Positions 681-30,530 of a stretch of 64,000 nt of DNA are shown here, in pieces. Position 1 is the stretch's first letter. Each line of letters begins with the position of its first letter. Position numbers and translations under genes: made by a program. The DNA is taken from positions 1 to 64,000 of IMG/VR virus record IMGVR_UViG_3300046168_000070, one strand, 5' to 3'. The notes beneath the pieces were generated by a model. It made no database searches and was not told the DNA's origin. It was given only the letters and a program-made list of their open reading frames with translations. The DNA comes from a virus.

Positions 681-3548
681 ATGGATTACTCAGGAGACAA
701 CACAATATCAATACAGTCATCTGATGCAGTAGTTCGAACTAGAAAAGAAAGAGAAATACAAATTTACAATGTTAATGGCTTCTTTGATACTAGAGAATGT
801 AGAGATTTTAGTTCAATGTTCCAAAGTTGCCTGATGTTAAATCATTTTGGCGGCAAGCTCGTCTACAACTCTACAGCTTCATCACCAGATGATGTTTTTG
901 GCATAATTGAAGATAAAATATTTGATTCTCTGGCATTCAATTATAAAAGCGCAGTTCGTATGGATAGAATGTTTTTCAATGTTTTTAAAGATTTTGTATC
1001 TGATTTTGTAGACGCACTTGAATCTTTGAAAAGAAGTTTCGCAATATATGGAAGTCGAACATACTATATAGAAAATACCGAAATGTTTCCCATTGAAACA
1101 ATTCAAGAAATAGAAGAGCTTATTTATATATTCTTTAACCTTAGCGACCCCTCAGATCTGCCCATTAAAAATACTGCAACATCTTTATTCTACAGCTCGC
1201 TTGGGATTGAAAGTCTAGCTTCAACAAAACGTATTTATTCAGCTATTAATGCTGGTCAAACAAATAATATAGTTGGATGGACTGTAGAAGCCGATGCCGA
1301 TACGATATTAAGTGATGATGAAATTCCATCAACTATTACAGATAATAGTATTAATACTGCGCTATCAGTTTATTATGATTCGCTAGCGCCATTTTTCGCA
1401 GAAAATGACACATATTCTTTTGTTCCAGAACACAAATCTTTTTTCCTTAATTTTAATGATAGAGAAATAGATTCTGAAATTAGTTTAGGTGGCATATTTT
1501 ACAACAGTCAAAATATTGAGAATGTCGTTTTTTTAAAGAATCCAAATTTTAAAAACAAAATCAACAACATTTCAAGTTCTTTTTTTGATTGTAGGAGATT
1601 AAGAGACTTCATAGATTTAAGGGGCTTCGATTTTAACACTTTACAGACTACAAATAATTTTGCGAGAAATTGCTACCATATTAAGTATATATTTTTCGAT
1701 GATACATTTTTGAGTGAAGGTAATACAACATCTGATATTTCATTTATGTTTTATAACTGTTTTTTACTTCAATCTGTAAATACTGAAAACTGGATAGGCA
1801 ATAATCTATACACGATGGCTCATGTTTTCGCAAATTGCCACTCTATTGAAGTGATTAATTTTTCTAAACTAAATCCAGAAAAATGTTTACTTTTCAATAA
1901 TGCATTTGAAGAATGTAACTCAATTAATGAATTAAACTTAAATAATTTCTCAACTACTTCAGGAATCAGTTTTAATTATATGTTTCAAAACGTGGGTGCA
2001 GCTTATCCTGCATGGGAATTTATTTATGAAGAATACGGCCCTCCAGGTAGTGCTGGTACAGTATCAACTGAGCAGCCTGACCTTGATTACGCCGAAGGAG
2101 TTAATGCCTACTTACTTAATAATTACGTAAGAGATGAGTCTGGTAATATAATACCCCCAAGTTCTGCAATCGATTTTCAATTTTACCGAAATCAAGTTTA
2201 CGGAAATTGGTATTCGCTTTACTATGGAAGTCTTAACAGTTATTATTATGAGAAGGATGGATTTCTTTACATAGTTTTAGATTTTTTAAGAGATAATTTT
2301 TACAGAGAAGCTCAGTTAACGATGCCTACGCAAGAAGAATACACTATGTATATAGATAGAAAATGGGATTACTCGGAAGGATTGGATTCCTTAGACTTAA
2401 CAAGCTTTGATATCTCTAACGCTTACCAAGCAGATAGATCTCCCTACAATACTCGTAGCACAAGTCATTTGGTAAGTACCAGATACCGCGGACTTTTTGA
2501 AGATAAATACTTACCACAGCTATTAGGTAATTCAAGACACTGGAACCCAGATCTTGTGAATGCTTATTCATACGTTTCGCTATTCCTAAAACATAAAGCT
2601 CTTAATAATTATTTTTATTTTGAAAAAATCAATGATTCAGACCACCCATTTGACTACATGGACCAAATGTTTCAGGAATATGAAAAAGCTTATGAAATCG
2701 ATCCAACTCCTTCGTTAGCGTATTCGCTTTCCTCCCCCCTTTATCCTTTTTATACTAATTACAACAATGGCCTTTCTGGTGGCATAACTGGCATGTTCAA
2801 AGGGTTAACTATTAATACTTTAACCATACCCGAAAATTTTAAAATAAATAATCATTCCAAAAAATTCGCTAATGTGGATCTTTCCAGTGGCACTGCATCA
2901 CTTATGAAAGATATAATGGAGACAAAAAGTTCAAAATTATTTTATAGCGAAAATGAAATTTTAGATTTTGTTAATAATTCGAACTGGGATCCTACGAATT
3001 CTACAACTTCTAATAACCCCCTTTATGGCGACTTTGTTATAGCTTTATCACCATCTTGCAAAGAACTGTTTTTTAGGATTAGAGTAAATGAATTAAATAT
3101 TTCCAATGAATTCTTAGAAAGCTTATCGGCAACTAGAGATATATCTGGATTATTTAGCTCAGCATGTTGTAGAAACTTTAATGAAAATTGGGCGTTAAAA
3201 CCTAGTGAGTTTAATCGTTCTTCGTACGTTTCTGGAGGCGCAATAAAAACTAATCTGACCGATTTTTCAAAAATCGACACCAGCTCAGCTTTAATTTTTA
3301 CTTCCGCTTTTGGGGAAGCGATGCTTGAAAACTTAGATTTATCTACATTAAATACAAATAATGCTTTTGATCTTACATACACATTTGCCCGCTGGGACTT
3401 AAGCCTAAACCCCCTAGTTCTTTCAAGCATGGATACATCTAACGTTCGTTCAATGGTTGGAACCTTCTCATACATAAAGGATCTTAGCTCGCTAACAACA
3501 GTACCTAACTCAGTAGATCTATCTTTTTTAAATTTTAAAAAGTTGTAA
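681..3548 (+). CDS. Middle fragment of giant adhesin-like protein with BspA/DUF285-type leucine-rich repeats (frame open from 390)
   Basis: Repeats such as LDLSTLNTNNAFDLTYTF, SMDTSNVRSMVGTFS and LNLNNFSTTSGISFNYMF. No stop in this frame between 390 and 681. Confidence 0.7.
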   Translation: MDYSGDNTISIQSSDAVVRTRKEREIQIYNVNGFFDTRECRDFSSMFQSCLMLNHFGGKLVYNSTASSPDDVFGIIEDKIFDSLAFNYKSAVRMDRMFFNVFKDFVSDFVDALESLKRSFAIYGSRTYYIENTEMFPIETIQEIEELIYIFFNLSDPSDLPIKNTATSLFYSSLGIESLASTKRIYSAINAGQTNNIVGWTVEADADTILSDDEIPSTITDNSINTALSVYYDSLAPFFAENDTYSFVPEHKSFFLNFNDREIDSEISLGGIFYNSQNIENVVFLKNPNFKNKINNISSSFFDCRRLRDFIDLRGFDFNTLQTTNNFARNCYHIKYIFFDDTFLSEGNTTSDISFMFYNCFLLQSVNTENWIGNNLYTMAHVFANCHSIEVINFSKLNPEKCLLFNNAFEECNSINELNLNNFSTTSGISFNYMFQNVGAAYPAWEFIYEEYGPPGSAGTVSTEQPDLDYAEGVNAYLLNNYVRDESGNIIPPSSAIDFQFYRNQVYGNWYSLYYGSLNSYYYEKDGFLYIVLDFLRDNFYREAQLTMPTQEEYTMYIDRKWDYSEGLDSLDLTSFDISNAYQADRSPYNTRSTSHLVSTRYRGLFEDKYLPQLLGNSRHWNPDLVNAYSYVSLFLKHKALNNYFYFEKINDSDHPFDYMDQMFQEYEKAYEIDPTPSLAYSLSSPLYPFYTNYNNGLSGGITGMFKGLTINTLTIPENFKINNHSKKFANVDLSSGTASLMKDIMETKSSKLFYSENEILDFVNNSNWDPTNSTTSNNPLYGDFVIALSPSCKELFFRIRVNELNISNEFLESLSATRDISGLFSSACCRNFNENWALKPSEFNRSSYVSGGAIKTNLTDFSKIDTSSALIFTSAFGEAMLENLDLSTLNTNNAFDLTYTFARWDLSLNPLVLSSMDTSNVRSMVGTFSYIKDLSSLTTVPNSVDLSFLNFKKL

Positions 3549-16951: not shown

Positions 16952-17689
16952 ATGATACCAATTTTCAAAAGTCATTATTCGATTGGAAAATCTATCTTAA
17001 CTTTAAAAAATCCAGAAAAAGTTGAAGAAGATGGCGCTGATAGCGTTTTCTCTATAGCTCAAGAGTACAAACTCAAACAAGTTTGCTTAGTGGAGGACTC
17101 TTTAGTGGGCTTTTTAGAGGCGAAAAAAACCTCCGAAGAGTTAGGCATTAATTTATATTTCGGCCTCAGGATGGAAATTGAGAATGGTAGTTCCTATAAG
17201 GTTATTATCTTCGCCAAAAACAGTGAAGGCATCAAAGACTTAAACAGCATATATAGTGACAAATTTTGTTCAGAAGAAAAATTTTCTATAGATTCACTTA
17301 AATCTTTATGGACAGATAATCTTTTGCTAGTTATACCTTTTTACGATTCTTTTATATTTAACAATACATTATCTTTTGCGGGATGCATGCCTGATTTTAA
17401 TTTTACAAATCCATCTTTTTTACTAGAAGACAACGGCTTGCCATTTGACCATATAATAAGAAAAAAAGTATTAGATTACTGCAATACAAATCAACTTGAA
17501 ACATTAGAAGCTAAAAGTATTTATTATAAAAACAAATCTGACTTTGATGCTTGGTTAACTTATAAAATTGCGACAAATAGACGCTTCGGAAAGAATCAAT
17601 CATTATATTGCCCTAATTTTGATCACCTTGGTAGTGATGAATTTTGCTTCGAATCTTACCTCAATAAAAATGACAGACAAACTTCTTAG
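16952..17689 (+). CDS. Stand-alone PHP domain of split DNA polymerase III alpha
   Basis: KSHYSIGKSIL, CLVED...GF, FGLRM and IFAKNSEGIKDLNSI. Confidence 0.8.
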   Translation: MIPIFKSHYSIGKSILTLKNPEKVEEDGADSVFSIAQEYKLKQVCLVEDSLVGFLEAKKTSEELGINLYFGLRMEIENGSSYKVIIFAKNSEGIKDLNSIYSDKFCSEEKFSIDSLKSLWTDNLLLVIPFYDSFIFNNTLSFAGCMPDFNFTNPSFLLEDNGLPFDHIIRKKVLDYCNTNQLETLEAKSIYYKNKSDFDAWLTYKIATNRRFGKNQSLYCPNFDHLGSDEFCFESYLNKNDRQTS

Positions 17690-18311
17690 ATTTAATAAAA
17701 AACAAAAATATATATATTTTGATTTCGAAACTTGTGGCTTAAATTTAGCCTCAAAAGAAAACAAACCTTGGCAGCTTGCGTTTATAGTATCCGATGGAAC
17801 TAAGATTGTTTCAGAAAAAGATTATTTAATCAAGTGGGACACTCTTGATATTTCTGATGGAGCTGCAAAAACAACAGGATTCTCTAGAACTAAATACAAC
17901 AAACTCTCTGTTGATCCAACAATGGTTCTCGATGAATTCGAGAAATACATCTATGACGATCAATATTTAATTATAGGGCACAATATACTAGGCTTTGATG
18001 TTTATATACATAATATATTCAGAAAACTACTAGGCAGAGATACAGACTATTCTTACATAAATAGATGCATAGATACATTATCTTTATCGAAAGCTAAATT
18101 AAAAGAAATTAAATTTGACAAAAATCAAACTTTAATTAATTGGCAATACAGATTAAACTCTTTTAGAGAAAGAGGAATGAAGTGTAGCTTAAAAGTTATG
18201 TGCAAATTGTACGATATACCCTTTGACGAATCAAAACTGCATGATGCATTATATGATATCAGAATCAACAAACTATTATTCGAGAAATTATTATGGCAAA
18301 TAGATATTTAA
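17670..18311 (+). CDS. DEDDh 3'-5' exonuclease (DnaQ-like)
   Basis: YFDFETCG, GHNILGFD, IDTL and LHDALYDI. Confidence 0.9.
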   Translation: MTDKLLRFNKKQKYIYFDFETCGLNLASKENKPWQLAFIVSDGTKIVSEKDYLIKWDTLDISDGAAKTTGFSRTKYNKLSVDPTMVLDEFEKYIYDDQYLIIGHNILGFDVYIHNIFRKLLGRDTDYSYINRCIDTLSLSKAKLKEIKFDKNQTLINWQYRLNSFRERGMKCSLKVMCKLYDIPFDESKLHDALYDIRINKLLFEKLLWQIDI

Positions 18312-20869
18312 AATTTAAAGAAAACTTTTCCAACTACGATGACTGTATTGATCCAGGAGTAAAACTCCCCGAGATCAATATCACTTTGAAACAAAAAAAA
18401 GAGCTTAAATGTAAACCTGACTGTTCAAACCTAGACTACCTTAAAGCTTTGTGCTGGAAGGGGGTCAGGGACAAAGGTGTAGACAAACTCAAGAACAAGC
18501 AAGACTATTATGACAGAGCTAAAACAGAGTTAGAAATTCTAGACAAGCTTGGGTTCGTTGATTACATTTTATTAAATTGGGACATTCTTAATTATTGTCA
18601 CGAAAACGATATCCCAACAGGCCCAGGCAGAGGGTCGGCTGCAGGATCTTTGGTTCTTTTTTTAATCAGAGTAACTAATATTGATCCTGTTAAATATGAT
18701 TTATTTTTTGAGAGGTTTGTAAGTGAGAGTCGAGCTAAGAAAATTGAAAAAAATGGAGTCACGTATTTAGATGGCAGCTTATTAGCAGATATTGATAATG
18801 ATATTTCCTACGAAAGAAGAAAAGACGTTATTTCTTATATAGAAAACAGATTCCCAGGCAGAACCGCTAAGATTTTAACACTAAATACATTAAGCGGAAA
18901 ACTTTGTATTAAAGAATGTGGCAAAATTGTAAAAGAATTATCCGAACAAGACGTAAATTTAGTTAGCTCTTATATACCTAAAAGATTTGGCGAAGTAGCT
19001 CCTTTAAGAGATGCCTATAATGAATCTCAAAAATTTAAAGAATGGGTAGATTCTAATGAAAAAATATTCAAAATTGCAAAGAAAATAGAAGGTTTAAATA
19101 AAAATACTGGAGTCCATCCTTCAGGTATAGCAATTTGCCATCAAGATATTAGTAGAGCTTGTCCCATCCAAAAGACTAATGACGGAGCTCTTGTTACAGG
19201 ATATGATATGAATTGGGTGGCAGAGTTAATGGTTAAATTCGATATCTTAGGATTGAGAACACTGACAGTTATTCATGACACTTGTAAGCAGTTAAATATT
19301 TCCCCAGAAAGTATTGATCTAAATTCAAAAGCAATTTTTAAACCACTCAAGAATCTAGAAAACCCACATGGCTTATTTCAAATCGAAGCCGACACAAACT
19401 TTCGGGTGTGTAGAAAAATTAAGCCCTCAAGCCTAGAGGAGCTCAGTGCTGTTGTTGCCATTGCTCGTCCAGGAGCTCTAGAGTTCATGGATAATTATTC
19501 GGACTATACTCGAACAGGTGACTTTCAAAGTGTTCATCCATTTTTTGATGAAGTATTGAATTATACAGGCGGTATACCTCTTTACCAAGAACAATTAATG
19601 AAAATGGCCGTTAAAGTCGGATTCACTCTTGATGAAGCAGAGCAGCTAAGGAGAATAGTTGGAAAAAAGAAAGTTAAAGAGATGCCTCAATGGAAGTCTA
19701 AAATTTCAGAAAAAATTCGAGAGAAGAATTTAGATGAAGAAATTGGAGAAGTTTTGTGGAAGGTCGCAGAAGATAGTGCAAATTACTCTTTTAATAAATC
19801 TCATTCTATATCCTATGCAACTCTTGCAGCATGGACAGTTTATTTAAAATTTAAGCACCCAAAACAATTCTTCTTAAGCCTTTTAAAGATGACGGAATAC
19901 GAACCATCTCCACAAGAAGAAATAAGTAAAGTTTCTAGAGAATTAAGCTTTTTCAACATACAACTTTTACAACCTGATTTAATAAGATCAAATATGGAAT
20001 TCTCTATAGAGAAAGATAATATAAGATTTGGATTAAATAGTATTAAAGGGGTAAGTAATAAGTCTTTAGCTAATATCAACTCTTTCATTAAAGAAAACGA
20101 AAATACTTCTAATAAGTTTGAGTTATTTTTATGCGCAAAAGAATGCGGAATTAATATTGGAATATTATGTGGTTTAATCCAGGCAGGGGCTTTGCATACA
20201 GAAAATAAATCCAGAGCTCGCACAGTACTTGAAGCACAAGCCTTCAATATTTTAACAGATAGAGAAAAGCGTTTATTCACACAAATCGGCTCTGACTTTG
20301 ATTACGACATACTAACTGCAGTATCAACATGTATATCAAAAAACCTCCTCGGAGACAATGGAAAACCAATTATGTCGGAAAAAAGATTTCAAACCTTTAA
20401 GACTAAACTATCTCCATATAAAGAGATTTATGAAAAAAACAAGTCTTACGAACAGTTTGCTAATTGGTATTTTGAAACAAAGTTGTTGGGTTACAGCTAT
20501 TCTACAACTCTACAAAAAGTATTCAGTACGGACAAAAACAGGTTTTACAACACCTATGAGCATTCAACTTTTCAAAAAGGCGAAAGAGTAAAAATGGTAT
20601 GTGTAGTAGAAGATGTTTTATCTGGAGTGAGTCGGAATGGAAATAAATATATCAAATTATCTTTACATGACGAAATCGGCTCAGTCCAAGCAATGATAGG
20701 TGATTTTAGAACTCCTAATTTAACTAAATATAAAGATTCTGGAGGAGTCACTCCTAAAAAAGATAATATTATTGTTATAGTAGGAGAAAAGAGTGATGAC
20801 ATAATATTTGTAGATCGAATGTCTATAATGGACGACAAGATTTACATGAAACTTAGTGATTTAAAATAG
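18293..20869 (+). CDS. dnaE: DNA polymerase III alpha core (DnaE, lacking most of the PHP domain)
   Basis: GPGRGSAAGSL, LFFERF, ADIDND, GVHPSG, VKFDILGL, YQEQLM, YSFNKSHS and a C-terminal OB fold. Confidence 0.95.
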   Translation: MANRYLKFKENFSNYDDCIDPGVKLPEINITLKQKKELKCKPDCSNLDYLKALCWKGVRDKGVDKLKNKQDYYDRAKTELEILDKLGFVDYILLNWDILNYCHENDIPTGPGRGSAAGSLVLFLIRVTNIDPVKYDLFFERFVSESRAKKIEKNGVTYLDGSLLADIDNDISYERRKDVISYIENRFPGRTAKILTLNTLSGKLCIKECGKIVKELSEQDVNLVSSYIPKRFGEVAPLRDAYNESQKFKEWVDSNEKIFKIAKKIEGLNKNTGVHPSGIAICHQDISRACPIQKTNDGALVTGYDMNWVAELMVKFDILGLRTLTVIHDTCKQLNISPESIDLNSKAIFKPLKNLENPHGLFQIEADTNFRVCRKIKPSSLEELSAVVAIARPGALEFMDNYSDYTRTGDFQSVHPFFDEVLNYTGGIPLYQEQLMKMAVKVGFTLDEAEQLRRIVGKKKVKEMPQWKSKISEKIREKNLDEEIGEVLWKVAEDSANYSFNKSHSISYATLAAWTVYLKFKHPKQFFLSLLKMTEYEPSPQEEISKVSRELSFFNIQLLQPDLIRSNMEFSIEKDNIRFGLNSIKGVSNKSLANINSFIKENENTSNKFELFLCAKECGINIGILCGLIQAGALHTENKSRARTVLEAQAFNILTDREKRLFTQIGSDFDYDILTAVSTCISKNLLGDNGKPIMSEKRFQTFKTKLSPYKEIYEKNKSYEQFANWYFETKLLGYSYSTTLQKVFSTDKNRFYNTYEHSTFQKGERVKMVCVVEDVLSGVSRNGNKYIKLSLHDEIGSVQAMIGDFRTPNLTKYKDSGGVTPKKDNIIVIVGEKSDDIIFVDRMSIMDDKIYMKLSDLK

Positions 20870-20870
20870 A

Positions 20871-20876
20871 GTGTAA
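20871..20876 (+). promoter_or_regulatory. GTGTAA element upstream of clpC
   Basis: 16 nt before ATG 20893. Confidence 0.55.
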
Positions 20877-20892
20877 TATATAATAATATATC

Positions 20893-23340
20893 ATGAACGC
20901 AGAACCCCAAGCTAATTTTACGCCAAGATGCCAAGCCATCATAAATGAATCTAAAAAATTATGCTCTAAACTAAGGCATGATTCAGTAGAGCCAATTCAT
21001 TTATTTTCTTGTATTCTTAGTAATCAATTTAGCGTAATACCTGATTTATTGGCTACTTATTCTATTAGCATTGACGAAGCTATTACCTGTGTTTCGGCAA
21101 ATCTTCAAAAAGTAAAACCAATAGATAGGAATAGCACTTTCAATATACATTTCTCCAAAGACTGTAAAGAGGTTATATTTTCAGCTATTGAAATTTCAGA
21201 GCAGCTGTTGCATCCTTATGTTGGGGTAGAGCACTTATTAATATCAATACTAGAGCAAAAAGACCCCCTAACTTCTGCAGTTTTAGAATCTCTTGAAATT
21301 AACTATAAAGAGTTTCACGTTCTTTTACATAATCAGTTATTTTTAGCCTCAGGAGTTGATAATATCGGATGGAGCCCTAGTCAATCATCAGTTAACCAAG
21401 AAAGCTCTGCAAGCGCCAAGCATAAATCCCAATCATCCTATCCCGCAATTGAGAAATATTGTAAAAATTTAAATAAAGTTGCAGAACAAGATGGGTTCGC
21501 TAAGTTAGTTAGTAAAGATGCAGAACTTAAAGTTCTATGTGAAATACTTTGTAGAAAAAATAAAAATAATCCTATACTGCTAGGAGAGCCAGGGGTTGGT
21601 AAAACTGCCATTATTGAAGGTTTAGCTTCGTCAATAGTAAATCAAACTTGCCCAAATATTCTATTAAATAAAAGTATATTTTCCCTAGATCTAGGGCTGT
21701 TAGTCGCTGGCACAAAGTACAGAGGTCAATTTGAAGAACGTCTCAAAAAATTATTAAATGAGTTTAAGAATTTCAAAAACTCTATCTTATTTATAGATGA
21801 AATACACACTATTATCGGGGCAGGTGGTGCAGAAGGATCAATGGATGCCTGTAACATACTAAAGCCAGCCTTAGCTAGGGGCGAAGTCTCTTGCATCGGG
21901 GCCACCACTTTGTCTGAATACAAAAAAACTATCAGGAAAGATGGAGCTCTGTCTAGAAGATTTCATCCTATTAAAGTAAATGAGCCTTCCACAGAAGAGA
22001 CTCTTAAAATCCTCAAAGGCATTAGCCCGTTCTACGAAAAATACCACAAAGTTAAGTACCGAGATGAAGCTTTAACTTATTGCGTTAACCTAGCCGAAAA
22101 ATATGTAAATGAAGGAAATTTTCCAGACAAGGCTATAGATATTCTAGATCATGCAGGATCAAAATGTAAAATTAAAAACTTCAATATACCTGACGCTATA
22201 AAAGACTTAGAAAAAACTATATCAGAGAGAATAGATTCCACCTCCTATCTCCATAATGGATCTATGACAGGAGACCTTGAAGAACTTTTCGAAAAGTATG
22301 AGTCAATGCTGAAAGAGTGGGACAAAGATTATGAAAAAAATTTACCTATAATTTCTAAAAAAGAAATACTTGATATAGTTTCTGAAAAGTGCAATGTATC
22401 AATAAAAGATATGGATGAATCTACCGTAGAAAAAGCTAAATCATTAAATAGGTTTTTGTCCAGGAAATTAATTAACCAGAAAGATGCAATAAAATCTTTG
22501 TCTAATTGCTTAAAGCGTAATTTATGTGGGTTAAAAGAGCCCAATAAACCTTTGGGATCATTTTTATTTTTAGGGTCTACAGGAGTGGGTAAAACTTATC
22601 TTTCAAAACTTCTTTCATCTCACTTATTTCAATCAAAAGATTCTTTTATTTCGATAGATATGTCAGAATACTCTGAAAAAAATTCAATATCTAAATTTAT
22701 AGGATCAGCTCCTGGTTATGTAGGCTATGAAGAAGGAGGAGGGCTAGTTGAAAAATTGAGAGCAAACCCTCATGCAGTTGTTCTTTTTGACGAGATAGAA
22801 AAAGCTCATCCCGATGTCTTGAATATCCTATTGCAAATTCTAGAAGAGGGATCTTTAACTGATAATACTGGATATTCTGCAGATTTCTCGAAGTCTATTG
22901 TTATTGCGACTAGCAATATCGGCTCTGAAAAAATAATAGAAAATAAATCATTAGGTTTTATGTCTTCTCCAGAAAGTGCAGAGTCTTTGGCTATTAAAGA
23001 TTTAGAAAAATCAATGAGGCCAGAACTAATCAATAGGTTCGATGAAATTATAGTATTCAATCAATTGAAGGACGATGACTTTAAATCAATTATAAATATA
23101 GAAATATCTAAAATTAAATCAATGCTTAAGCATTCTAAAATACAAATCAATGTAGACGAAAAAGCTTTAGAGTATTTATATAATTTAAATTTTGATAAAA
23201 AATATGGAGCAAGATTTATATCAAGAACATTAAAAAACGAGCTACAAAACCCTCTATCTGACTTTATACTTAAAAATTACCAACAAAAGAAAATCAATAT
23301 TACCACTACGAAAAATGGAAGAGGAATTAAACTATATTAA
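20893..23340 (+). CDS. clpC: ClpC/ClpA-type Hsp100 AAA+ unfoldase
   Basis: Two Clp-N repeats, [14 protein letters not shown] and [15 protein letters not shown], short middle domain, ClpP-docking LGF loop at 22951-22959. Confidence 0.9.
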
Positions 23341-24472
23341 AACATTTCAAGAGGAGTATGAACCAGACTCCCATAATTTTGTAAATGAATATTTCGAAAT
23401 ATTTAAGTCAAACTTTGAAAATAACGAGCTACCTAAAGAAATTAGATTTTTAGACGAACAAGGTTTCAGAATTTCTGCGCCTACCACCAATAAAACTTAT
23501 CTTACAGTTTTCTTTTCGAAACCCGAAAAACCTTCATATCTGGGTAAATTTTCCCTAGTATCAGATGGGGCAGATATTAAAAAAGAATCAGTTATATTAA
23601 AAAGTCTTAAAGATTTAGATGTTTCTCCTGAACTTTTATACTATGGAGAACTACAAAATGGCTCTGACGTAAATTTTTTGTTTACTACCGTAGAAGGTGT
23701 TAATAACAATTTAAATGGAACAAATCCTGATTTTTGGTGGGCAAATCATAAAGAAATTTTACTAGAGAGATTACTATTACTGCACAAACTAAAAAATAAC
23801 ATATCCGTTTCGCGGTATGAAGATATTTTTATTTCCGATTTTTTCGAAAACGTTTTGTTTGAAGAAGAAAATTTATTTGATTTTGTTTTTCAGTCAGACT
23901 CGGATCCCGCTTTTTATGATTTCATTTTAAAATGTAAAGATAGCTGCTTGGATATATGTTCGAAATTAGATAAGAAGGAATTTGTTCTGTGCCATAATAA
24001 TTTATGCAAGTCTTCTGTTTTGTTTGAGCCAAACTCAAAAGAGAAATTTAAATTTATAAATTTTCATAAATCGATAATAGCTCCTCCTGCTATTGATTTA
24101 CTGTCAATATATCACAGGCTATCTCTAGAAGAAGATGACTACCATAGTAGCTTCTCAAGAGATAGCTTCTCTGAAATTAAAAAAGTTTATGAAAAAATTG
24201 CTGGAGTTGAAATTGACTTTTCTGTTGATATTAGGTTCTTAAATACAGTTCAAAGAATTTTATTACTCATTTATGAAAATAATTTTCCGCCAGTCGCCTT
24301 ATTTCAATCAAATGCATTGTTAAAATTCCGATCTAGAAGCTCTGAATTAAAATACCTCAAGGACAGGTTTTTAAATATTATTCAATCTCCAGAATTTTCT
24401 CATAAAAAACAATTTGAATATATTCAAAACGCGGACGATATCCCTCTGCAAGAATTACTTTTATACGGTTAA
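23315..24472 (+). CDS. APH/choline-kinase-like phosphotransferase, apparently catalytically degenerate
   Basis: KESVILKSL...SPELLYY; LCHNNL at the HxDL position and FINF at the IDF position. Confidence 0.55.
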   Translation: MEEELNYIKTFQEEYEPDSHNFVNEYFEIFKSNFENNELPKEIRFLDEQGFRISAPTTNKTYLTVFFSKPEKPSYLGKFSLVSDGADIKKESVILKSLKDLDVSPELLYYGELQNGSDVNFLFTTVEGVNNNLNGTNPDFWWANHKEILLERLLLLHKLKNNISVSRYEDIFISDFFENVLFEEENLFDFVFQSDSDPAFYDFILKCKDSCLDICSKLDKKEFVLCHNNLCKSSVLFEPNSKEKFKFINFHKSIIAPPAIDLLSIYHRLSLEEDDYHSSFSRDSFSEIKKVYEKIAGVEIDFSVDIRFLNTVQRILLLIYENNFPPVALFQSNALLKFRSRSSELKYLKDRFLNIIQSPEFSHKKQFEYIQNADDIPLQELLLYG

Positions 24473-24512
24473 TTATGTATTGAATTTTTTATATTTCTAT
24501 ATATAATAATTC

Positions 24513-25082
24513 ATGAGCATAGCCCTTTATAAACCAAACAGTAAAAATACTGGAACTGCAGTTAATTTAAGAATTGGCTCAGGCAAATATAATGTACCTG
24601 CCCTTTACATAGGCGCAATTCAACAGCATAGCTGGGACGACTCTAGAAAGCTAGGCTCTTTTAGCGAGAATGCAAAAAACCCTGACAAAACAATCAATAT
24701 TAAGTTAAACGAATTTGAGTGTGGCGAAATCTTAAACTCAATAAAGGATCGGGTGGAGTATTCAACTTTTCATAAATTTGATGATAACCAAACAGTGATT
24801 AAATTCACACCATGGGACAAGCAAAGAAAAATTTCTAAATACAATCCTAAAAGCAAAACTTTCGATGAAACAAGCGTTACAGTAAGCGCCTTCGGTTTAA
24901 CAATTACAAGAAATGGGAATCAAAGTTTTAAAATTTCAATTGAGCCAGGAGAAGTTAGGGTAATTGAAGAGTTTTTAAAAAATTATTTGATTGATTTCTT
25001 TAAATCAAAAGCAGAAAATTTAGATAAAAATAAATCATCCGCTACTCCAACTGAAAATTTATCTGAAGATCCTCCTTTTTAA
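24513..25082 (+). CDS. Putative Whirly-like ssDNA-binding protein
   Basis: Two beta-sheet/helix repeats ending KLNEFECGEIL and SIEPGEVRVI; acidic C-terminus SEDPPF. Confidence 0.45.
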   Translation: MSIALYKPNSKNTGTAVNLRIGSGKYNVPALYIGAIQQHSWDDSRKLGSFSENAKNPDKTINIKLNEFECGEILNSIKDRVEYSTFHKFDDNQTVIKFTPWDKQRKISKYNPKSKTFDETSVTVSAFGLTITRNGNQSFKISIEPGEVRVIEEFLKNYLIDFFKSKAENLDKNKSSATPTENLSEDPPF

Positions 25083-25750
25083 TGAAGAAAGTTCTAATTC
25101 ACAGCAATCACTCAAAAGCCTTTACAGGTTTCGGCAAACATACTAAAAATTTATTAATCTTTTTGCAAAAGACAGGTAAGTATGAATTAATAGAGTTTGC
25201 TAACGGTAGAAAGTGGTCAGACCCTACTTTATCTAAAATGCCATGGAAAACATATGGCTCTGCGCCTGATAGCGATATAGCTACTCAAAAAGCCTCAAGA
25301 GACCCCAAGTTAAAACGTCAACTAGGTTACGGGGGCATCATGATAGACGAAGTTATAGAAAAAGAAAAACCTGATGTTTACATAGGGATAGAAGATATAT
25401 GGGCCTTTAGTGGCTACTGGGAAAAGCCTTGGTGGGATAAAATTAATCATGCAGTTTGGACAACCCTTGACAGTTTACCTATTCTACCTGAAGCAGTTAG
25501 CGCTGCTCCTAGAATTAAAAACTATTTTGTTTGGGCTTCTTTTGCGGAAAAGGCTATGAAAGAGCTTGGGCACGGTCACGTCAAAATGATAAGAGGTTCT
25601 TTAGAAACAAATCAATTTTTTAAATTAAATAAAAATGATAAGCTAAAACTAAGGTCTGCATTCGGTATAGACGAAAAAGAATTCATTATAGGCTTTGTAT
25701 TTAGAAACCAACTCCGCAAAAGCGTTCCCAATCTATTAGATGGTTTTTAA
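25082..25750 (+). CDS. GT4-like glycosyltransferase, N-terminal part (frameshifted)
   Basis: KVLIHSN...TGFG and IIGFVFRNQLRKSVPNL; continues in the +1 frame at 25749. Confidence 0.8.
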   Translation: MKKVLIHSNHSKAFTGFGKHTKNLLIFLQKTGKYELIEFANGRKWSDPTLSKMPWKTYGSAPDSDIATQKASRDPKLKRQLGYGGIMIDEVIEKEKPDVYIGIEDIWAFSGYWEKPWWDKINHAVWTTLDSLPILPEAVSAAPRIKNYFVWASFAEKAMKELGHGHVKMIRGSLETNQFFKLNKNDKLKLRSAFGIDEKEFIIGFVFRNQLRKSVPNLLDGF

Positions 25751-26993
25751 AATATTCAGAGATAAAAATCCTGAATCCAAAGCTAAGCTTTTACTGCACA
25801 CAAACTGGTCAGAAGGCTGGGACATTCCTAGGCTTTTAAAAGAGAAGGAAATAGACCCATCATTAGTTTTAACCACTTACTATTGCTCTAAATGTAAAAA
25901 TTATGAAGTCAAAACATTTGTAGGTCAACAACAAAATTGTAAGTTTTGTGGTTCAGAAAAAACACAAAATACTACTAGTGTTAATGCTGGTGTGTCAGAA
26001 GATCAATTAAATCAAGTTTATAATTTAATGGATGTCTATTGTCACCCTTTTACATCTGGCGGGCAAGAGATTCCGATTCAAGAAGCTAAATTAACTGAAT
26101 TAATTACTTTAGTAACTAACTATAGTTGCGGGGAAGACTGTTGTACTGAAGAAAGTGGAGGTTTGCCACTCAACTGGAAAGAATATCGAGAGCCTGGCAC
26201 ACAATTTATTAAAGCTACCACAGATCCTTTCAGTATTTATAAACAATTAAATAAAGTTTATAAAATGAATGAAAAAGACTTAGAGCAAAAAGGTAAAATT
26301 GCCCGTGAGTTTGTCTTAAAAAACTTTTCAATAGAAGTCATAGGAAGGCAAGTAGAAGAGTTTATTGATTCTTGTCCTGAAATTGAATATAATTTTGACA
26401 TCAAGCCTCATAACAAAAAAAGAAACAACAATTATCCATTACAAAAAATAGAAGATAATCTAGAATGGCTTATAGATCTCTATAAAAATATTTTAATAAG
26501 AGATGTTGATGAAAACGATGACGGTATCAAGCATTGGATGGCAAAGATACAGCAGGGAGGCTCAAGAGAAAGTATTCACAACTACTTCATTTCGGTAGCA
26601 AATAAAGAAAACCAAGAAATTGTGGATTCTCTTGATAGGATCCTACGAGAAGATACTTCTAAAAAAATTGCTATAGTTGTAAATGAAAACGCTACAGAAA
26701 CATTTCTCTGCACATCCTTACTACCTTCAATAAAGAGACTGTACGCAGATCATAATATATATTTCTTTGCCCCTGAAAATAGCCTAGATATACTTAAGGG
26801 TAATCCTCATATATATAAAAGCCTACCCGTCTCGGAAGATCTTTTTGATTGTATTTCTCTGGAAAAGAAAAGGGAAGGCGAGAATTTCTTTGATGTAGTC
26901 TATTATCCATCAGATGCTTCTTCAGGAGCATTTCGTTATTGTCATCAAGGAAGAGATAAAATAGAATATAAAACAGAATATGCACATACTTGA
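25740..26993 (+). CDS. GT4-like glycosyltransferase C-terminal part + DUF4214-like + GT9-like segment
   Basis: DVYCHPFTSGGQEIPIQEA (GT4 E-x7-E), CxxC...CxxC insert, LYKNILIRDVD...W...GGSR. Confidence 0.75.
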   Translation: MVFKIFRDKNPESKAKLLLHTNWSEGWDIPRLLKEKEIDPSLVLTTYYCSKCKNYEVKTFVGQQQNCKFCGSEKTQNTTSVNAGVSEDQLNQVYNLMDVYCHPFTSGGQEIPIQEAKLTELITLVTNYSCGEDCCTEESGGLPLNWKEYREPGTQFIKATTDPFSIYKQLNKVYKMNEKDLEQKGKIAREFVLKNFSIEVIGRQVEEFIDSCPEIEYNFDIKPHNKKRNNNYPLQKIEDNLEWLIDLYKNILIRDVDENDDGIKHWMAKIQQGGSRESIHNYFISVANKENQEIVDSLDRILREDTSKKIAIVVNENATETFLCTSLLPSIKRLYADHNIYFFAPENSLDILKGNPHIYKSLPVSEDLFDCISLEKKREGENFFDVVYYPSDASSGAFRYCHQGRDKIEYKTEYAHT

Positions 26994-28143
26994 ACACTTT
27001 TCTCTTAATTGCGGAATTAAATCTGCAGAGGCATTCATCCAGGAAGACTTTATCCCAGTAGCTTGTGATAAGTTTATATGTATTAATAATGACCATTCTA
27101 TCAGTTCATTTAATTATTCTTATTGGTCTGACGTATTTGATATAATCAAACCTTATCTTGACAAATCTAATATTAAAATCATCCAAATAGGTTCACCCAA
27201 AGACCAACTACTACCAAGCTGTGAAGATTTCCGACATATACAGACTAGACATCAAGGGGCTTATATAATTAATAGATCTGAATTATTCATAGGTTCTGAC
27301 ATTTTTTATTCAAACATTGCATCGCATTTTAACACTCCAGGAGTGCTTTTATTCGGGCCGATCCCTCCCTCCTGCACCGCGCCCTTCTGGAACAAGGATA
27401 AATTTGATATTTTGTGTGAAACAGAAAAATTTTCTTATTCCTCTAAAGAGTTAGAGAAATCAATTGATCAAATCAAGCCTGAAGATATAGCAAACGCTAT
27501 ACTTAAAAGGCTGAAAATTCCATTTGAAAGCGATCAAAATACACAATTTATAGGTCAACTTTATGACAACAAAATTTTTGAAGTAATACCTAATTTTTCG
27601 CCGAACCCTGATTTTCTGAAAAATTCATTTATTACAATTAGAGCGGACTATGAAGAATCAGATGACCATATTCCTTCTTGGGCTTCAGGTCGTAAGGTCA
27701 ATTTGATTACAGATAGAAAGATAGATTTAAATTTAATTAATGCCATTAAAAGTTCTTTGCAGGTTATCCATTTTCAAATACCAGATGATTGTAGTGAAGA
27801 AGTTATCTCAGAAAATCAACAGTATTTTAAAACTATTAAAAAATTTGGCATAAACATTAGTTTATTCAGAAAAACAACTGAGTTTATAGAAAAACTTAGA
27901 TTGCACTATTTTGACTGGAATGTTGAAGTTTTATCTCAAAAGAAACCTGGCGATGATGTTTTAAACAATAAAGATCTGTTTTTTTATTCTGGCAAACTGA
28001 TCTTTTCAAATGGGAAAAAATACCCTTCCATTGAGCATGCCGTAAACGACGTAGAAAGTTCTACTGGAGTAAATAAAATCATAGATAGCGATTTATTTTG
28101 GTCAGAATCAGATCATTATAGAATTATTTCAAAAAGTAATTGA
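26980..28143 (+). CDS. GT9 (heptosyltransferase)-like protein
   Basis: YSYWSDV...IIQIG...LFIGSDIFYSNIASHFNTPGVLLFGP. Confidence 0.65.
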   Translation: MHILEHFSLNCGIKSAEAFIQEDFIPVACDKFICINNDHSISSFNYSYWSDVFDIIKPYLDKSNIKIIQIGSPKDQLLPSCEDFRHIQTRHQGAYIINRSELFIGSDIFYSNIASHFNTPGVLLFGPIPPSCTAPFWNKDKFDILCETEKFSYSSKELEKSIDQIKPEDIANAILKRLKIPFESDQNTQFIGQLYDNKIFEVIPNFSPNPDFLKNSFITIRADYEESDDHIPSWASGRKVNLITDRKIDLNLINAIKSSLQVIHFQIPDDCSEEVISENQQYFKTIKKFGINISLFRKTTEFIEKLRLHYFDWNVEVLSQKKPGDDVLNNKDLFFYSGKLIFSNGKKYPSIEHAVNDVESSTGVNKIIDSDLFWSESDHYRIISKSN

Positions 28144-28168
28144 CTTAGTTTATAATATATGTTATTAT
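28140..28168 (+). promoter_or_regulatory. Sigma70-like promoter (extended -10)
   Basis: TTGACT-17 bp-TATTAT preceded by TG. Confidence 0.7.
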
Positions 28169-28177
28169 ATATAAACA

Positions 28178-28966
28178 ATGAAAAAAACAACTAAGCAAAC
28201 AAAAATAGATAACAGCTCTGGTCCAAATCTTTATGCTAGAGACGAAAACGGATTACTACAAAACCATCAATATGAATTTAATGACGATGGCTCAATCAAT
28301 TGGAGAGCCATGATTAAAGATGAGCATTTATTTCCAAATAGATCTTGGTTTCAAACTAGAGGAAAAGATTATCCTAAAACTATAGAAGGTCTCGCGGATC
28401 ACCAACTTTTAATAAAATTAAGTGGCATAAAAGAACTAGCTAAACTCAGAGGATTTTCTTCGGTTAACTATAAAACTGTAAAATGCGAAGAAGACCATGT
28501 AGCTGTATCTTGTTCGATTACTTTTCTAGCCAACTATGAAACCAACAATGAGCCTATTGTGTTTGAGGATATGGCTAATGCAACACTGAACAATACTAGC
28601 AGCTTCGCAACTAAATTTCTAGAAACAATCGCTTGTAATAGATCATTTGTGCGCTGCGTTAGAAACTTTTTAAATGTCCATATTGTCGGAGATGACGAAA
28701 TCGATAAATCAAACAATACTCAGCAGAATCTTACCCAGAGAGAAACTGAAGCGCAGTCAAATTCAGACATCTCTCCTGCTGGAATACTCGCTAGCCTAGC
28801 AAAAGATAAATTTGGCATCAATAACTATAGCGACTTCAAAAGCAAACTTCGGGAATTGTGGCAAAATGATTTGTATAAAAATGCTGACACTAAAAATTGG
28901 TCAGACTTTTCAGACATTCCTCCTAAAGAAGCGAGAGCTCTACTCAAAGCGCTACACTCATCTTAA
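28178..28966 (+). CDS. Rad52/Sak-like single-strand annealing protein
   Basis: LSGIKELAKLRG...VSCSITF...FLETIACNRSFVRCVRNFL. Confidence 0.5.
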   Translation: MKKTTKQTKIDNSSGPNLYARDENGLLQNHQYEFNDDGSINWRAMIKDEHLFPNRSWFQTRGKDYPKTIEGLADHQLLIKLSGIKELAKLRGFSSVNYKTVKCEEDHVAVSCSITFLANYETNNEPIVFEDMANATLNNTSSFATKFLETIACNRSFVRCVRNFLNVHIVGDDEIDKSNNTQQNLTQRETEAQSNSDISPAGILASLAKDKFGINNYSDFKSKLRELWQNDLYKNADTKNWSDFSDIPPKEARALLKALHSS

Positions 28967-28970
28967 TTAG

Positions 28971-28976
28971 GTGTAA
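28971..28976 (+). promoter_or_regulatory. GTGTAA element upstream of tmRNA
   Basis: 26 nt before the predicted mature 5' end. Confidence 0.5.
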
Positions 28977-29002
28977 CCTTCAAAGTTCTTTGAAAAATTT
29001 AT

Positions 29003-29400
29003 GGGCGTGTACTGGATTCGATTTAAATTAGATTAGTATACTGCAAGTAGGAGTTGCATCTGGCTCCTAAAAAAGGTGCAAACAATTACATGGCAACAAA
29101 AACCGTGTTAAAGCTTTTGGCTTAAAAGCTAAAAAGCTTGCCTTAGCAGCTTAGTTCTGCTACCTCGTAACTTTTGACGCAGATAAAGAGATTACGAGGT
29201 CATCAATCTGCAAAACAGATAAAAGTTTATCCGTTTCATAAACTGTACCATTGAGTATTCGAGGGCCTCAAGTTTGAGTGAATAATTGAAATGGTTAGTT
29301 GGATGTTAATATCATAACTGTAAAAAAAATTAACTAAACTTGTAGATGTATATCTACAGAAAATTTAAAGACGCGGGTTCGACTCCCGCCACGTCCACCA
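29003..29400 (+). ncRNA. ssrA: tmRNA (398 nt, CCA encoded); tag GNKNRVKAFGLKAKKLALAA at 29092-29154
   Basis: Acceptor stem GGGCGTG/CACGTCC-ACCA with G3:U70; CTGGATTCGA; T-arm GCGGGTTCGACTCCCGC; pseudoknot 1 (AGGAG/CTCCT and TTGCATC/GGTGCAA); tag ends LALAA-TAG. Confidence 0.96.
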
Positions 29401-29732: not shown

Positions 29733-29950
29733 TTTTTAATTTTTGGTTTAATAAAAGATGTGTATTTTCTCCTCACGCTAGCTTTCCTGCACGACGAGCA
29801 GCCTCCAGGCGTATTAACTTCAGAAAGATAATCTCTTTTCATTTGCTCGCAACCTTCAAAATCAATTTCCTTGCAAGTTTGCTCTGGAGTTTTATTTACA
29901 TCCATAAATATCGTTATTAAATTCATTTCTTCTGGCGTACTATTATTCAT
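29729..29950 (-). CDS. Small Cys-containing hypothetical protein
   Basis: GGCSSCRK; stop overlaps the start of the next gene. Confidence 0.6.
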   Translation of the reverse strand: MNNSTPEEMNLITIFMDVNKTPEQTCKEIDFEGCEQMKRDYLSEVNTPGGCSSCRKASVRRKYTSFIKPKIKK

Positions 29951-29955
29951 TTTTC

Positions 29956-29984
29956 TTGACAAATTTGTTTATATATATTATAGT
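29956..29984 (+). promoter_or_regulatory. Sigma70-like promoter, leaderless transcript
   Basis: TTGACA-17 bp-TATAGT, ATG 6 nt downstream. Confidence 0.75.
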
Positions 29985-29990
29985 TATAAT

Positions 29991-30530
29991 ATGAAAAATA
30001 TTCTAGAAAAAACTAAAACTTATCTAGTCGGCCATATGCAATATATTAGCGGAAGAAATTGGAGAACTGAAGTTACTCAAAAGCTCTCTGAAATCAATGT
30101 AACTTGTTTTGACCCTTACGAAAAGCCATTTATGAAAGACGTAGAAGAAGATGAAGCGTCTAGGCTTGAGATGGAAAATTGGATGAAAACTAAGCAATAC
30201 GATAGGGCAGCTCAAAGAATGAAAACCGTAAGAGCATATGATTTAAACTTAGTAGATAGAAGTGACTTTATTATTGCTCATCTTGTCCCCTCTGTAGCTT
30301 CTTGGGGTAGCGCTGAAGAAATTGTAACTGCTGTTAGGATGAAGAAGCCAATCTTTATAAGCATGGAAGGGGGCAAGTCAAAAACTCCACTTTGGATGCT
30401 TGGTATGTTACCTCACAAGTACATTTATGATTCGGTAGAAGAAATTGTGGATATGCTATTTGCAATCAATGACGGATCAAAGCCAATTGATTCTGATCGT
30501 TGGAGATTATTAAGGCATGAATATAGATAA
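29991..30530 (+). CDS. Nucleoside 2-deoxyribosyltransferase / 5'-nucleotide N-hydrolase-like protein
   Basis: TYLVG, FDP, DLNLVDRSDFIIA, SWGSAEE and KKPIF. Confidence 0.75.
   Translation: MKNILEKTKTYLVGHMQYISGRNWRTEVTQKLSEINVTCFDPYEKPFMKDVEEDEASRLEMENWMKTKQYDRAAQRMKTVRAYDLNLVDRSDFIIAHLVPSVASWGSAEEIVTAVRMKKPIFISMEGGKSKTPLWMLGMLPHKYIYDSVEEIVDMLFAINDGSKPIDSDRWRLLRHEYR

Follow-up and report, generated by a model that had tools for sequence, protein, structure and literature searches.

A tmRNA and a ClpC-type unfoldase in an uncultured marine phage: a plausible ribosome-rescue and proteolysis toolkit

Bacterial trans-translation employs a one-piece tmRNA with a tRNA-like domain, a G3:U70 pair, pseudoknot 1, a stop codon in helix 5 and a tag ending in LALAA, together with a Clp-family unfoldase that carries a ClpP-docking loop, and the phage locus described here has each of these elements. 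In bacteria the tag is degraded by ClpXP or ClpAP, with SspB as adaptor in E. coli, whereas no adaptor was found in the phage genome. The carrier also differs, as a phage that looks virulent and lacks both SmpB and ClpP; the unfoldase is of the ClpC type and not ClpX or ClpA, and the tag, at 20 basic residues, is about twice as long as the four Verrucomicrobiota tags that we read.

Earlier reports treat phage tmRNAs and phage Clp components each as isolated curiosities. The cultured Bacillus megaphage G carries a tmRNA, ClpX and ClpP, for which its authors propose translation monitoring (PMC12484599). It resembles our phage in joining a tmRNA with Clp proteolysis genes, but has its own ClpP and ClpX, dispersed over a 499-kb genome, where our 194-kb phage has a ClpC-type unfoldase, no ClpP and a loose linkage. 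Two-piece ssrA genes are known from the OM43 phage Melnitz and from pelagimyophages (PMC9004378), and tmRNA plus SmpB from huge phages (PMC7162821). As here, these tmRNAs are complete, promoter-driven and found in lytic marine or large phages, and the proposals made for them, that translation is kept running or that proteins are tagged for recycling, apply to our case too. In contrast to them, the present tmRNA is one-piece and belongs to a separate phage lineage, in which the 5' leader and the long tag are conserved; the marine share of one-piece phage tmRNAs is only 2.5% (PMC9004378). Among jumbo phages, ClpP, ClpS, ClpA and ClpX have been noted and proposed to redirect host proteolysis or aid assembly (PMC7824862). 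That survey mentions tmRNA 0 times, and describes neither a phage-specific ClpC clade nor a tmRNA linkage.

The locus lies in a 64-kb window of the DNA of an uncultured marine phage. The 193,844-bp genome was rated complete by CheckV and has an 844-bp terminal repeat. SmpB and ClpP were not found in the window, in agreement with the preliminary description of this DNA, and extending the search for smpB, clpP and tRNAs to the remainder, as that description had proposed, yielded none in the complete genome. ClpS, an RF-1 domain and an integrase were likewise not found in the 193,844 bp, and the ClpC partners MecA, McsB and ClpS were not detected. Because ClpC has a ClpP-docking loop and the genome lacks ClpP, host ClpP is the sole available partner; because the phage lacks SmpB, entry of the tmRNA into stalled ribosomes would need host factors. 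We assume that the phage tmRNA is compatible with host SmpB and AlaRS, and phage ClpC with host ClpP. Our preferred reading, to which we give a probability of about 0.5, is that the two genes, working and separately promoted, belong to a long-standing phage toolkit for ribosome rescue and Clp proteolysis, of which this phage keeps just the parts that connect to host factors.

The tmRNA and its tag

The tmRNA region comprises the following features:
28971-28976, + strand: GTGTAA box, 26 nt ahead of tmRNA base 1
28984-29002, + strand: conserved 19-nt 5' leader, shared by most of the 32 phage tmRNAs inspected
29003-29400, + strand: one-piece tmRNA (ssrA), identified by ARAGORN and Rfam RF00023
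29092-29154, + strand: tag reading frame, with resume codon GGC, 20 codons ending in LALAA and stop TAG at 29152-29154
29144-29162, + strand: helix 5 hairpin with the tag stop in its loop (columns 199-203 pair with 213-217)

The RF00023 match reached 130.1 bits (E = 1.4e-50, model positions 1-374) against a curated gathering score of 47 bits, and window and whole-genome searches agreed. The acceptor stem contains the G3:U70 alanine identity pair, a T-arm is present and the 3' CCA is encoded, bearing out the earlier view of a complete alanyl-type tmRNA. Across 22 related phage tmRNAs, compensatory changes occurred at 34 of the 69 predicted pairs, including pairs in the acceptor stem and T-arm, while G3:U was invariant in 22/22 copies. 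Judged by the ARAGORN and Rfam matches and these patterns of sequence change, the tmRNA is a real gene under selection. It looks functional, with aminoacylation and SmpB-dependent ribosome entry predicted.

The tag frame lies after pseudoknot 1 and stops within helix 5. For this copy ARAGORN returned a different frame (ending KLLA, stop at 29123), which we judged a mis-call, as the tags of relatives support the +1 frame. This +1 frame is ARAGORN's own choice in the closest relative, G001; its peptide is conserved in all clade relatives (21 related phage tmRNAs compared); and the hairpin that holds its stop covaries, with compensatory changes at 2 of 5 pairs. The LALAA ending originally read from this DNA is therefore correct. 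The tag ends in a hydrophobic degron, the canonical one for Clp, and conservation of its body extends well past the degron.

A phage might also carry ssrA as a passive remnant with no role in infection, left by imprecise excision of host DNA or kept as an attP-type target. It is generally known that ssrA is the integration site of many temperate phages, which carry its 3' end (discussed in PMC9004378), and the 3' 31 nt of the phage tmRNA are 97% identical to many Verrucomicrobiota tmRNAs. However, only this universal 3' end matched among the 301 Verrucomicrobiota genomes searched, and the phage carries the entire gene, preceded by a promoter-like box of its own and a conserved leader. The leader, a single copy in this genome, was also found in distant phage lineages and was absent ahead of four Verrucomicrobiota tmRNAs. 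The genome lacks a detectable integrase and has terminal repeats, with the tmRNA at an internal position. Together with the extensive compensatory change and the tag-peptide conservation among phage copies, these observations make a remnant very improbable.

A phage-specific ClpC clade

Two features define the unfoldase:
20893-23340, + strand: ClpC-type class I Hsp100 unfoldase of 815 aa (P0001), assigned by Pfam, solved structures and phrog_4871 (E = 5e-225)
22948-22956, + strand: codons of the L-G-F ClpP-docking tripeptide (residues 686-688), aligned with the AGF loop of S. aureus ClpC

Pfam recognized Clp_N, AAA, AAA_lid_9, AAA_2 and ClpB_D2-small, and of Clp_N only the second repeat (residues 100-141). 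The best solved relative, S. aureus ClpC (6em9, E = 3.5e-187), aligned in a single stretch (9-812 against 6-801), whereas matches to ClpB/Hsp104 broke into two, which confirms the short M-domain typical of ClpC (about 50-70 residues). A ClpB disaggregase was rejected (TIGR03346, 735 bits against a cut-off of 1232), its match splitting around the M-domain and the LGF loop being present. ClpA was rejected too (TIGR02639, 689 bits against a cut-off of 993), with ClpA structures scoring well below those of ClpC. The protein is accordingly a ClpC-type Hsp100 and not ClpB, and both the LGF loop and the short M-domain first noted for it hold against ClpC structures.

Both AAA+ modules are intact (GEPGVGKT, ILFIDEIH and KYRGQFE in the first; GSTGVGKT, [10 protein letters not shown] and GYVGY in the second), and conservation of the Walker A/B motifs and pore-loop tyrosines extends to the phage homologues. 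The two rings, pore loops, short M-domain and ClpP loop are shared with the ClpCs of S. aureus and B. subtilis (6em9, 3j3s). Unlike them, the phage protein has an N-domain that has diverged strongly, and a Q in its pore loop replaces the E of bacteria; the pore-loop signature KYRGQFE was found in 82 of the phage sequences. In a tree containing 80 bacterial ClpCs, which were the best hits of a word-based scan only, 87 of the 88 phage proteins grouped in a single clade (support 1.0) that excluded the bacterial ones, and identity to any bacterial ClpC found was 36-41%. The hydrophobic-Gly-Phe tripeptide was kept in 86/88 phage proteins. A separate ClpC clade of large uncultured phages that retains its docking loop even without a phage ClpP is a new observation, and the retention argues for a proteolytic rather than a pure chaperone role.

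N-domain identity within the phage clade was 26-28%, against 55% among bacteria of different phyla; this substrate-selecting domain evolves fast. The GTEH motifs of the ClpC N-domain, which we take to be phospho-arginine sites, read EPIH (first) and GVEH (second) in the phage protein. The phage ClpC looks functional, and ClpP docking and ClpP-dependent degradation are predicted.

Promoter-like boxes and gene neighbourhood

The surroundings of the two genes include:
16952-20869, + strand: split DNA polymerase III alpha/exonuclease genes (16952-17689, 17568-18311, 18293-20869)
20871-20876, + strand: GTGTAA promoter-like box before ClpC, 16 nt ahead of its ATG
23315-24472, + strand: 385-aa ORF whose start overlaps the end of ClpC by 26 nt
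29871-30530, + strand: nucleoside 2-deoxyribosyltransferase (NDT)-like gene (weak Pfam match), closing the variable slot that holds the tmRNA

Both genes follow a GTGTAA element, as had been reported. Genome-wide, 25 of 58 GTGTAA copies were intergenic although intergenic sequence makes up 8% of the genome (p = 7e-13), and nearly all of these were in the sense orientation 14-33 nt ahead of a start codon. The gap between polymerase III and ClpC held GTGTAA, GTGTAT or GTGTAC in 17 of the 25 relatives listed. Ahead of the tmRNA the box was kept in G001 (-32), G002 (-29) and G362 (-33), whereas in other relatives a sigma70-like TTGAC(A/T)-N17-TAnnnT replaces it. Of the proposal of late co-expression, the shared phage-specific box is borne out. 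Co-expression is not conserved, since several relatives have the sigma70-like promoter at the tmRNA, and late timing is not established because GTGTAA also precedes the ribonucleotide reductase gene.

The polymerase genes (Pfam DNA_pol3_alpha, finger and HHH_6; NCBIfam DnaE and epsilon-like pieces) preceded ClpC in every clade relative examined, and ClpC is a fixed replication-module gene behind DNA polymerase III in this phage family. The 385-aa ORF had no family match beyond a weak kinase-like one (E = 0.009), and as G001 is the only relative carrying it, it falls outside the conserved set. The NDT-like gene shows 71-83% identity among clade members and is the first conserved gene to follow ClpC or the cargo. 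The tmRNA itself counts as accessory cargo in the variable slot just downstream of ClpC, 5.66 kb from the end of ClpC (23340) to its first base (29003), close to the spacing of ~5.6 kb first given. Its position can equally well be described as beside the NDT-like gene, in a variable slot. In the complete genome G003, ClpC and the surrounding genes were kept and a 267-aa ORF occupied the place of the tmRNA.

This arrangement bears on the possibility that the two genes are unrelated neighbours, the tmRNA boosting ribosome recycling and ClpC serving replication, assembly or host-protein removal, with ancestry and genome size explaining their co-occurrence. The constant place of ClpC in the replication module, the moving cargo position of the tmRNA and its varying promoter type fit such independence, as do the assembly and translocase roles suggested for phage ClpA and ClpX (PMC7824862). 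Against it stand the docking loop kept in nearly all phage ClpCs, the placement of the tmRNA directly after clpP in huge relatives and the large excess of tmRNAs in ClpC-bearing phages, both of which are detailed below. We consider independence possible, if on the unlikely side; ordinary joint inheritance of two auxiliary genes would then be all that the locus reflects.

Co-occurrence and coupling of the two genes

All 3 complete TerL relatives had ClpC, and 2 of the 3 had the tmRNA. Every tmRNA-bearing record at least 90% complete also had ClpC (6/6, or 9/9 counting clade genomes), and a tmRNA was found in 10 of 15 ClpC-selected records at least 70% complete against a baseline of 2.3% of phage genomes (PMC9004378), a very large excess, although here, as in all our co-occurrence counts, the records are not phylogenetically independent and genome size is a confounder. 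That a long-tag phage tmRNA lineage accompanies ClpC at a rate far above that of tmRNAs in phages overall is new. The co-occurrence that the preliminary description had proposed to look for in relatives is thus seen, but not as a dedicated pair, since ClpC persists without a tmRNA in G003 and G005. A shared rescue-and-proteolysis toolkit is plausible; tmRNA and ClpC as an obligate pair is not shown.

A tighter coupling, in which ClpC recognizes the phage tag through its body or LALAA and feeds host ClpP, so that the two genes form one tag-and-destroy unit, would account for the conserved tag body and its doubled length relative to the four Verrucomicrobiota tags. It would also fit relatives in which the tmRNA lies downstream of ClpC on the same strand at 69 nt (G337), 137 nt (G367), 1.4 kb (G345/G380) or 2 kb (G377), the clpP-tmRNA adjacency in three huge relatives, and the GTGTAA boxes before both genes in G000, G001 and G002. 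However, the close cases are confined to two sister groups and therefore represent few events, the genes are 113 kb apart in G002, and ClpC outlives the tmRNA in the two genomes named above. Tag charge and ClpC N-domain charge showed no co-variation. A ClpC clade without the N-domain likewise pairs with tmRNAs, so this domain cannot be a general tag reader. Moreover, the main ssrA protease in model bacteria is ClpXP. On balance a dedicated pair seems doubtful. Of the original suggestion that the phage supplies the tagging RNA and redirects host ClpP, the intact genes and the docking loop speak for the general idea, and the dedicated pairing is not supported.

Under the pared-down toolkit that we favour, the tmRNA would be transcribed from its GTGTAA box with a leader of about 18 nt and trimmed to base 1. 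Host AlaRS would charge it with alanine via G3:U70, and host SmpB and EF-Tu would deliver it to stalled ribosomes, where it would append the 20-residue basic LALAA tag, freeing the ribosome and marking the truncated protein for Clp-type degradation. ClpC belongs to a phage-only lineage of double-ring AAA+ unfoldases. Given that the phage lacks its own ClpP, ClpC would have to dock on that of the host and would redirect it to phage-chosen substrates. Host ClpXP would probably clear the tagged proteins, perhaps with a contribution from ClpC-ClpP, and the main job of ClpC would be independent of the tag.

If the two genes are coupled, the phage would run a protein-quality-control and degradation route on host hardware, with a bearing on how ribosomes are freed amid host mRNA decay or defence nucleases that cut tRNA or mRNA, and on orthogonal degradation tags for synthetic biology. 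One could go further and suppose an ancestral phage-owned route (long-tag tmRNA, SmpB, ClpP and phage-only ClpC) common to large marine and freshwater phages, reduced in mid-sized genomes to a tmRNA and a tag-reading ClpC that use host SmpB and ClpP. Such a route, which we think unlikely, would let the phage alone decide which proteins, truncated or of the host, are destroyed while it infects the cell.

In the larger relatives the set is complete and clpP abuts the tmRNA, a further new observation. Among records of 197-369 kb a real ClpP was present in 6/6 and SmpB in 3/6. The huge relatives have a DnaJ-ClpP-tmRNA-tRNA-release-factor island, and the distance from clpP to the tmRNA downstream of it is 129 nt in G361, 134 nt in G366 and 700 nt in G373.

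The unfoldase and the tmRNA of the phage genome

The features discussed here are listed below at their window positions, the terminase at its genome position.

16952-20869: DNA polymerase III (PolIII) alpha pieces, comprising a DnaE N-terminal piece, an exonuclease-like piece and an 858-aa core
20893-23340: ClpC, 815 aa, with Clp_N, AAA, AAA_lid_9, AAA_2 and ClpB_D2-small domains
28984-29002: 19-nt leader directly adjoining tmRNA base 1
29003-29400, + strand: tmRNA, on which ARAGORN and Rfam RF00023 concur
29092 (GGC) to 29152-29154 (TAG), + strand: tag frame, +1 relative to that of ARAGORN
29144-29162: hairpin carrying the tag stop TAG in its loop, with compensatory changes
29871-30530: nucleoside 2-deoxyribosyltransferase-like (NDT-like) gene, 71-83% identical across the family
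111752-113740 of the genome: large terminase

The ClpC ORF matched phrog_4871 ('ATP-dependent protease') with an E value of 5e-225, and its closest solved structures were the ClpCs of S. aureus (E 3.5e-187) and B. subtilis (E 7e-179). ClpC structures aligned colinearly over residues 9-812, while matches to ClpB and Hsp104 broke in two at the M-domain, and the phage protein scored below the NCBIfam equivalog cut-offs for both ClpB and ClpA. Its Walker A and B motifs and both pore loops were intact, as was an LGF tripeptide (residues 686-688) that aligned with the AGF of ClpC. The preliminary description of a ClpP-docking ClpC and not ClpB is borne out by the colinear alignment, the LGF tripeptide and the score below the ClpB cut-off; the product is predicted to be a ClpC-type, ClpP-coupled unfoldase, not ClpB. 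No donor of the gene was nameable, the best bacterial matches being 36-41% identical and spread across many phyla. An overlapping downstream ORF (23315-24472) was considered as a conserved adaptor or kinase and rejected, as it occurred in the closest relative (G001) only and had no significant family match.

The tmRNA scored 130.1 bits (Rfam RF00023 cut-off 47) and covered the full model. Its acceptor stem (G-G-G-C-G-U-G / C-A-C-G-U-C-C) gives a G3:U70 pair and CCA is encoded. The tag that ARAGORN assigned to this copy (ending ...KLLA) was rejected by comparison with relatives. In the +1 frame the tag is a peptide of 20 residues, GNKNRVKAFGLKAKK-LALAA. We accepted this frame on four lines of evidence: it is ARAGORN's own choice in G001 (terminase identity 94%); an open frame encoding a recognisably related peptide is found at the same place in all clade relatives; the stop used by ARAGORN in the copy under study is not conserved in G001; and the +1 stop is placed in the hairpin loop. 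The ending LALAA had thus been read correctly from the sequence. Clade tags follow the pattern Gly, Asn/Lys-Lys, Arg-Val/Ile-Lys/Arg, Ala/Ser/Thr-Phe/Leu/Tyr and several more basic residues, with LALAA, FALAA or VAMAA at the C terminus.

When 22 phage tmRNA copies were aligned, double compensatory changes were found at 34 of the 69 predicted pairs, located in the acceptor stem, helix 2, pseudoknot 1, helix 5 and the T-arm, and G3:U was invariant. This pattern indicates that selection within phage genomes acts on both the structure and the coding of the tmRNA. ARAGORN reported no tmRNA for approximately 20 related copies, which Rfam scored at 66-138 bits; tag lists built with ARAGORN only will miss or mis-read this lineage. 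An extra ∼35-40 nt inside the tmRNA (29246-29283) recurred in two other phages (G327 and G337) and, in shorter form, in G333; it was absent from G001 and most others, and represents a recurring indel of the pseudoknot region.

The 19-nt leader was kept before most phage tmRNAs inspected, distant lineages included, and was absent before four Verrucomicrobiota tmRNAs. A role as a general promoter was ruled out by its single occurrence in the genome; it may signal processing or belong to a mobile tmRNA cassette. When 301 Verrucomicrobiota genomes were searched at the DNA level for a tmRNA donor, they matched over the universal 3' 31 nt only, so that no host or donor was nameable from it, and the four Verrucomicrobiota tags read were 9-10 residues long compared with 20 in the phage.

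The record spans 193,844 bp (GC 34%), the window covering its first 64 kb, and CheckV rates the genome complete. An 844-bp direct terminal repeat (window 1-844, genome 193001-193844) is present at both ends, although IMG/VR labels the record linear without end repeats. The whole genome encodes one tmRNA and no tRNA. Neither SmpB, ClpP, ClpS nor an RF-1-domain (ArfB-type) rescue protein was found anywhere in it; the absence of smpB and clpP first noted for the window, and the proposed search of the remainder for these genes and for tRNAs, therefore give the same answer for the complete genome. A tyrosine integrase was likewise not found across the genome. Origin of the tmRNA as an attP site or prophage remnant was rejected because there is no integrase and the tmRNA is internal to a terminally repeated genome.

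Co-occurrence and the phage ClpC clade

Among the complete relatives found through the terminase, ClpC was present in 3/3 and the tmRNA in 2/3. The exception, G003 (163 kb, rated complete), kept ClpC and the five genes after the ClpC-coupled ORF; a 267-aa ORF occupied its tmRNA site, where no RNA-family match was found. ClpC thus persists without the tmRNA. A second set of 30 more viral contigs was found with a DNA pattern derived from the tmRNA. The full tmRNA was present in all 23 contigs searched from this set, and ClpC in all six of its records at least 90% complete. Conversely, 10 of the 15 records at least 70% complete that had been chosen via ClpC or terminase, not via the tmRNA, carried a tmRNA. 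The published rate is 2.3% of isolates (402 of 18,146 phage genomes), with two-piece forms in pelagiphages (PMC9004378). Against this rate p is about 1e-13, in a test that ignores shared ancestry and genome size and takes the published 2.3% as its only baseline. Co-occurrence in relatives, proposed as a check, is consequently seen in 10/15 and 6/6 records; G003 is a complete counter-example.

In a maximum-likelihood tree of 168 ClpCs (88 viral and the 80 best bacterial matches, from many phyla), 87 of the 88 viral proteins formed one clade with support of 1.0, apart from the bacterial sequences. Its three branches comprise full-length proteins of mid-sized phages, including the phage under study; full-length proteins of 200-370-kb phages; and proteins of ∼670 aa lacking the N-domain. 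tmRNAs were found with all three, so that ClpCs without the N-domain also travel with them. The hydrophobic-Gly-Phe loop was retained in 86 of the 88 viral proteins, and pore loop 1 has Gln where S. aureus ClpC, the comparison sequence, has Glu. Identity within the phage family was 50-60% for D1 and D2; for the N-domain it was 26-28%, compared with 55% among bacteria of different phyla. Phage ClpC thus keeps its motor and its contact with ClpP, and diversifies at the end that chooses substrates. No electrostatic co-variation was found between tag charge (+7 to -6) and ClpC N-domain charge.

Gene order and promoters

The conserved order runs from the PolIII pieces to ClpC, a variable stretch and the highly conserved NDT-like gene, and the tmRNA usually lies in the variable stretch or beside the NDT-like gene. 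It is located 69 nt downstream of ClpC in G337, 137 nt in G367, 1.4 kb in G345 and G380, 5.6 kb in the phage under study and G001, and 6.2 kb in G333; in others the two are 13-25 kb apart, and in G002 113 kb. In the remaining relatives ClpC directly adjoins the NDT-like gene and the tmRNA is elsewhere. Because the ClpCs of the closest cases group as two sister pairs in the tree, close linkage reflects few events. The linkage is real, but as that of a cargo slot linked to a core module. The 71-83% identity of the NDT-like gene, compared with ∼60% for PolIII and 40-45% for ClpC nearby, points to unusual constraint on it. The PolIII core overlaps the end of the exonuclease-like piece, an arrangement common to all relatives. 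The ORFs at 25082-25750 and 25740-26993 overlap, and each matches one and the same ∼637-aa ORF in G001 and G003; the gene is therefore split here, through a frameshift, programmed frameshifting or an assembly error.

GTGTAA occurs 58 times in the genome, 25 of them in the intergenic 8% (p = 7e-13), where almost every copy is in the sense orientation and 14-33 nt ahead of a start codon. One box precedes the ClpC ATG by 16 nt and another precedes tmRNA base 1 by 26 nt; others are found ahead of tail genes, the tape measure and ribonucleotide reductase. The reductase large subunit (genome 178207-180657) follows a box at 178191. GTGTAA thus looks to be the marker of a phage promoter class not confined to structural genes. 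The PolIII-ClpC gap holds GTGTAA or GTGTAT/GTGTAC in 17 of the 25 relatives listed, and is absent altogether in one subclade. Before the tmRNA, GTGTAA is retained in G001, G002 and G362, while several other relatives have a host-type promoter, TTGAC(A/T)-N17-TAnnnT, in its place. The suggestion that both genes follow GTGTAA and might be co-expressed late therefore stands as regards the boxes; a late timing does not follow from them, since ribonucleotide reductase has the box too. Co-regulation is plausible in the phage under study, but, because promoter types differ, is not a conserved trait.

ClpP and SmpB in larger relatives

Canonical ClpP was found in all six records of 197-369 kb searched (E 1e-55 to 1e-79) and SmpB in three of them. 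The ClpP of G361 has the Ser and His motifs and best matches the solved H. pylori ClpP (E 3e-48). In G361, G366 and G373 the tmRNA follows clpP on the same strand, at distances of 129, 134 and 700 nt, respectively, from the clpP end. The order in G361 is DnaJ, two small ORFs, ClpP, tmRNA, a small ORF, tRNAs and an RF-1-domain protein; an island of DnaJ, ClpP, tmRNA, tRNAs and a short RF-1-domain protein is seen at three loci of huge relatives (L363, which is G361:217000-229000, L364 and L362).

In the mid-sized family a ClpP-like gene was found in G002 only (97 bits). Its 257-aa product (L182:2676-3449) has the Ser motif and may be either a prohead protease or a partner protease; the gene begins ∼5.4 kb upstream of where ClpC starts. 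Next to it, a 654-aa gene showed no homology to the 654-aa gene after the terminase in the phage under study.

The simplest reading is that ribosome rescue and Clp proteolysis form an old phage toolkit, complete in huge phages, which in the phage under study would have been trimmed to the parts able to use host SmpB and host ClpP. That ClpC reads the tag is conjectural, given that it persists without the tmRNA, that forms lacking the N-domain also accompany tmRNAs, that tag and N-domain charges vary independently and that the main ssrA protease in model bacteria is ClpXP. The preliminary description of a tmRNA and ClpC is confirmed as an observation, and its interpretation as a rescue and proteolysis pair is partly supported. 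Huge phages with tmRNA and SmpB have been described (PMC7162821), a jumbo-phage survey noted ClpP, ClpS, ClpA and ClpX and did not mention tmRNA (PMC7824862), and Megaphage G has tmRNA, ClpX and ClpP together (PMC12484599). Our literature search found no paper on the pairing of tmRNA and ClpC in phages.

The huge relatives also carry CTA-anticodon (amber-reading) tRNAs and second ClpP-like matches with in-frame TAA, which hint at stop-codon recoding.
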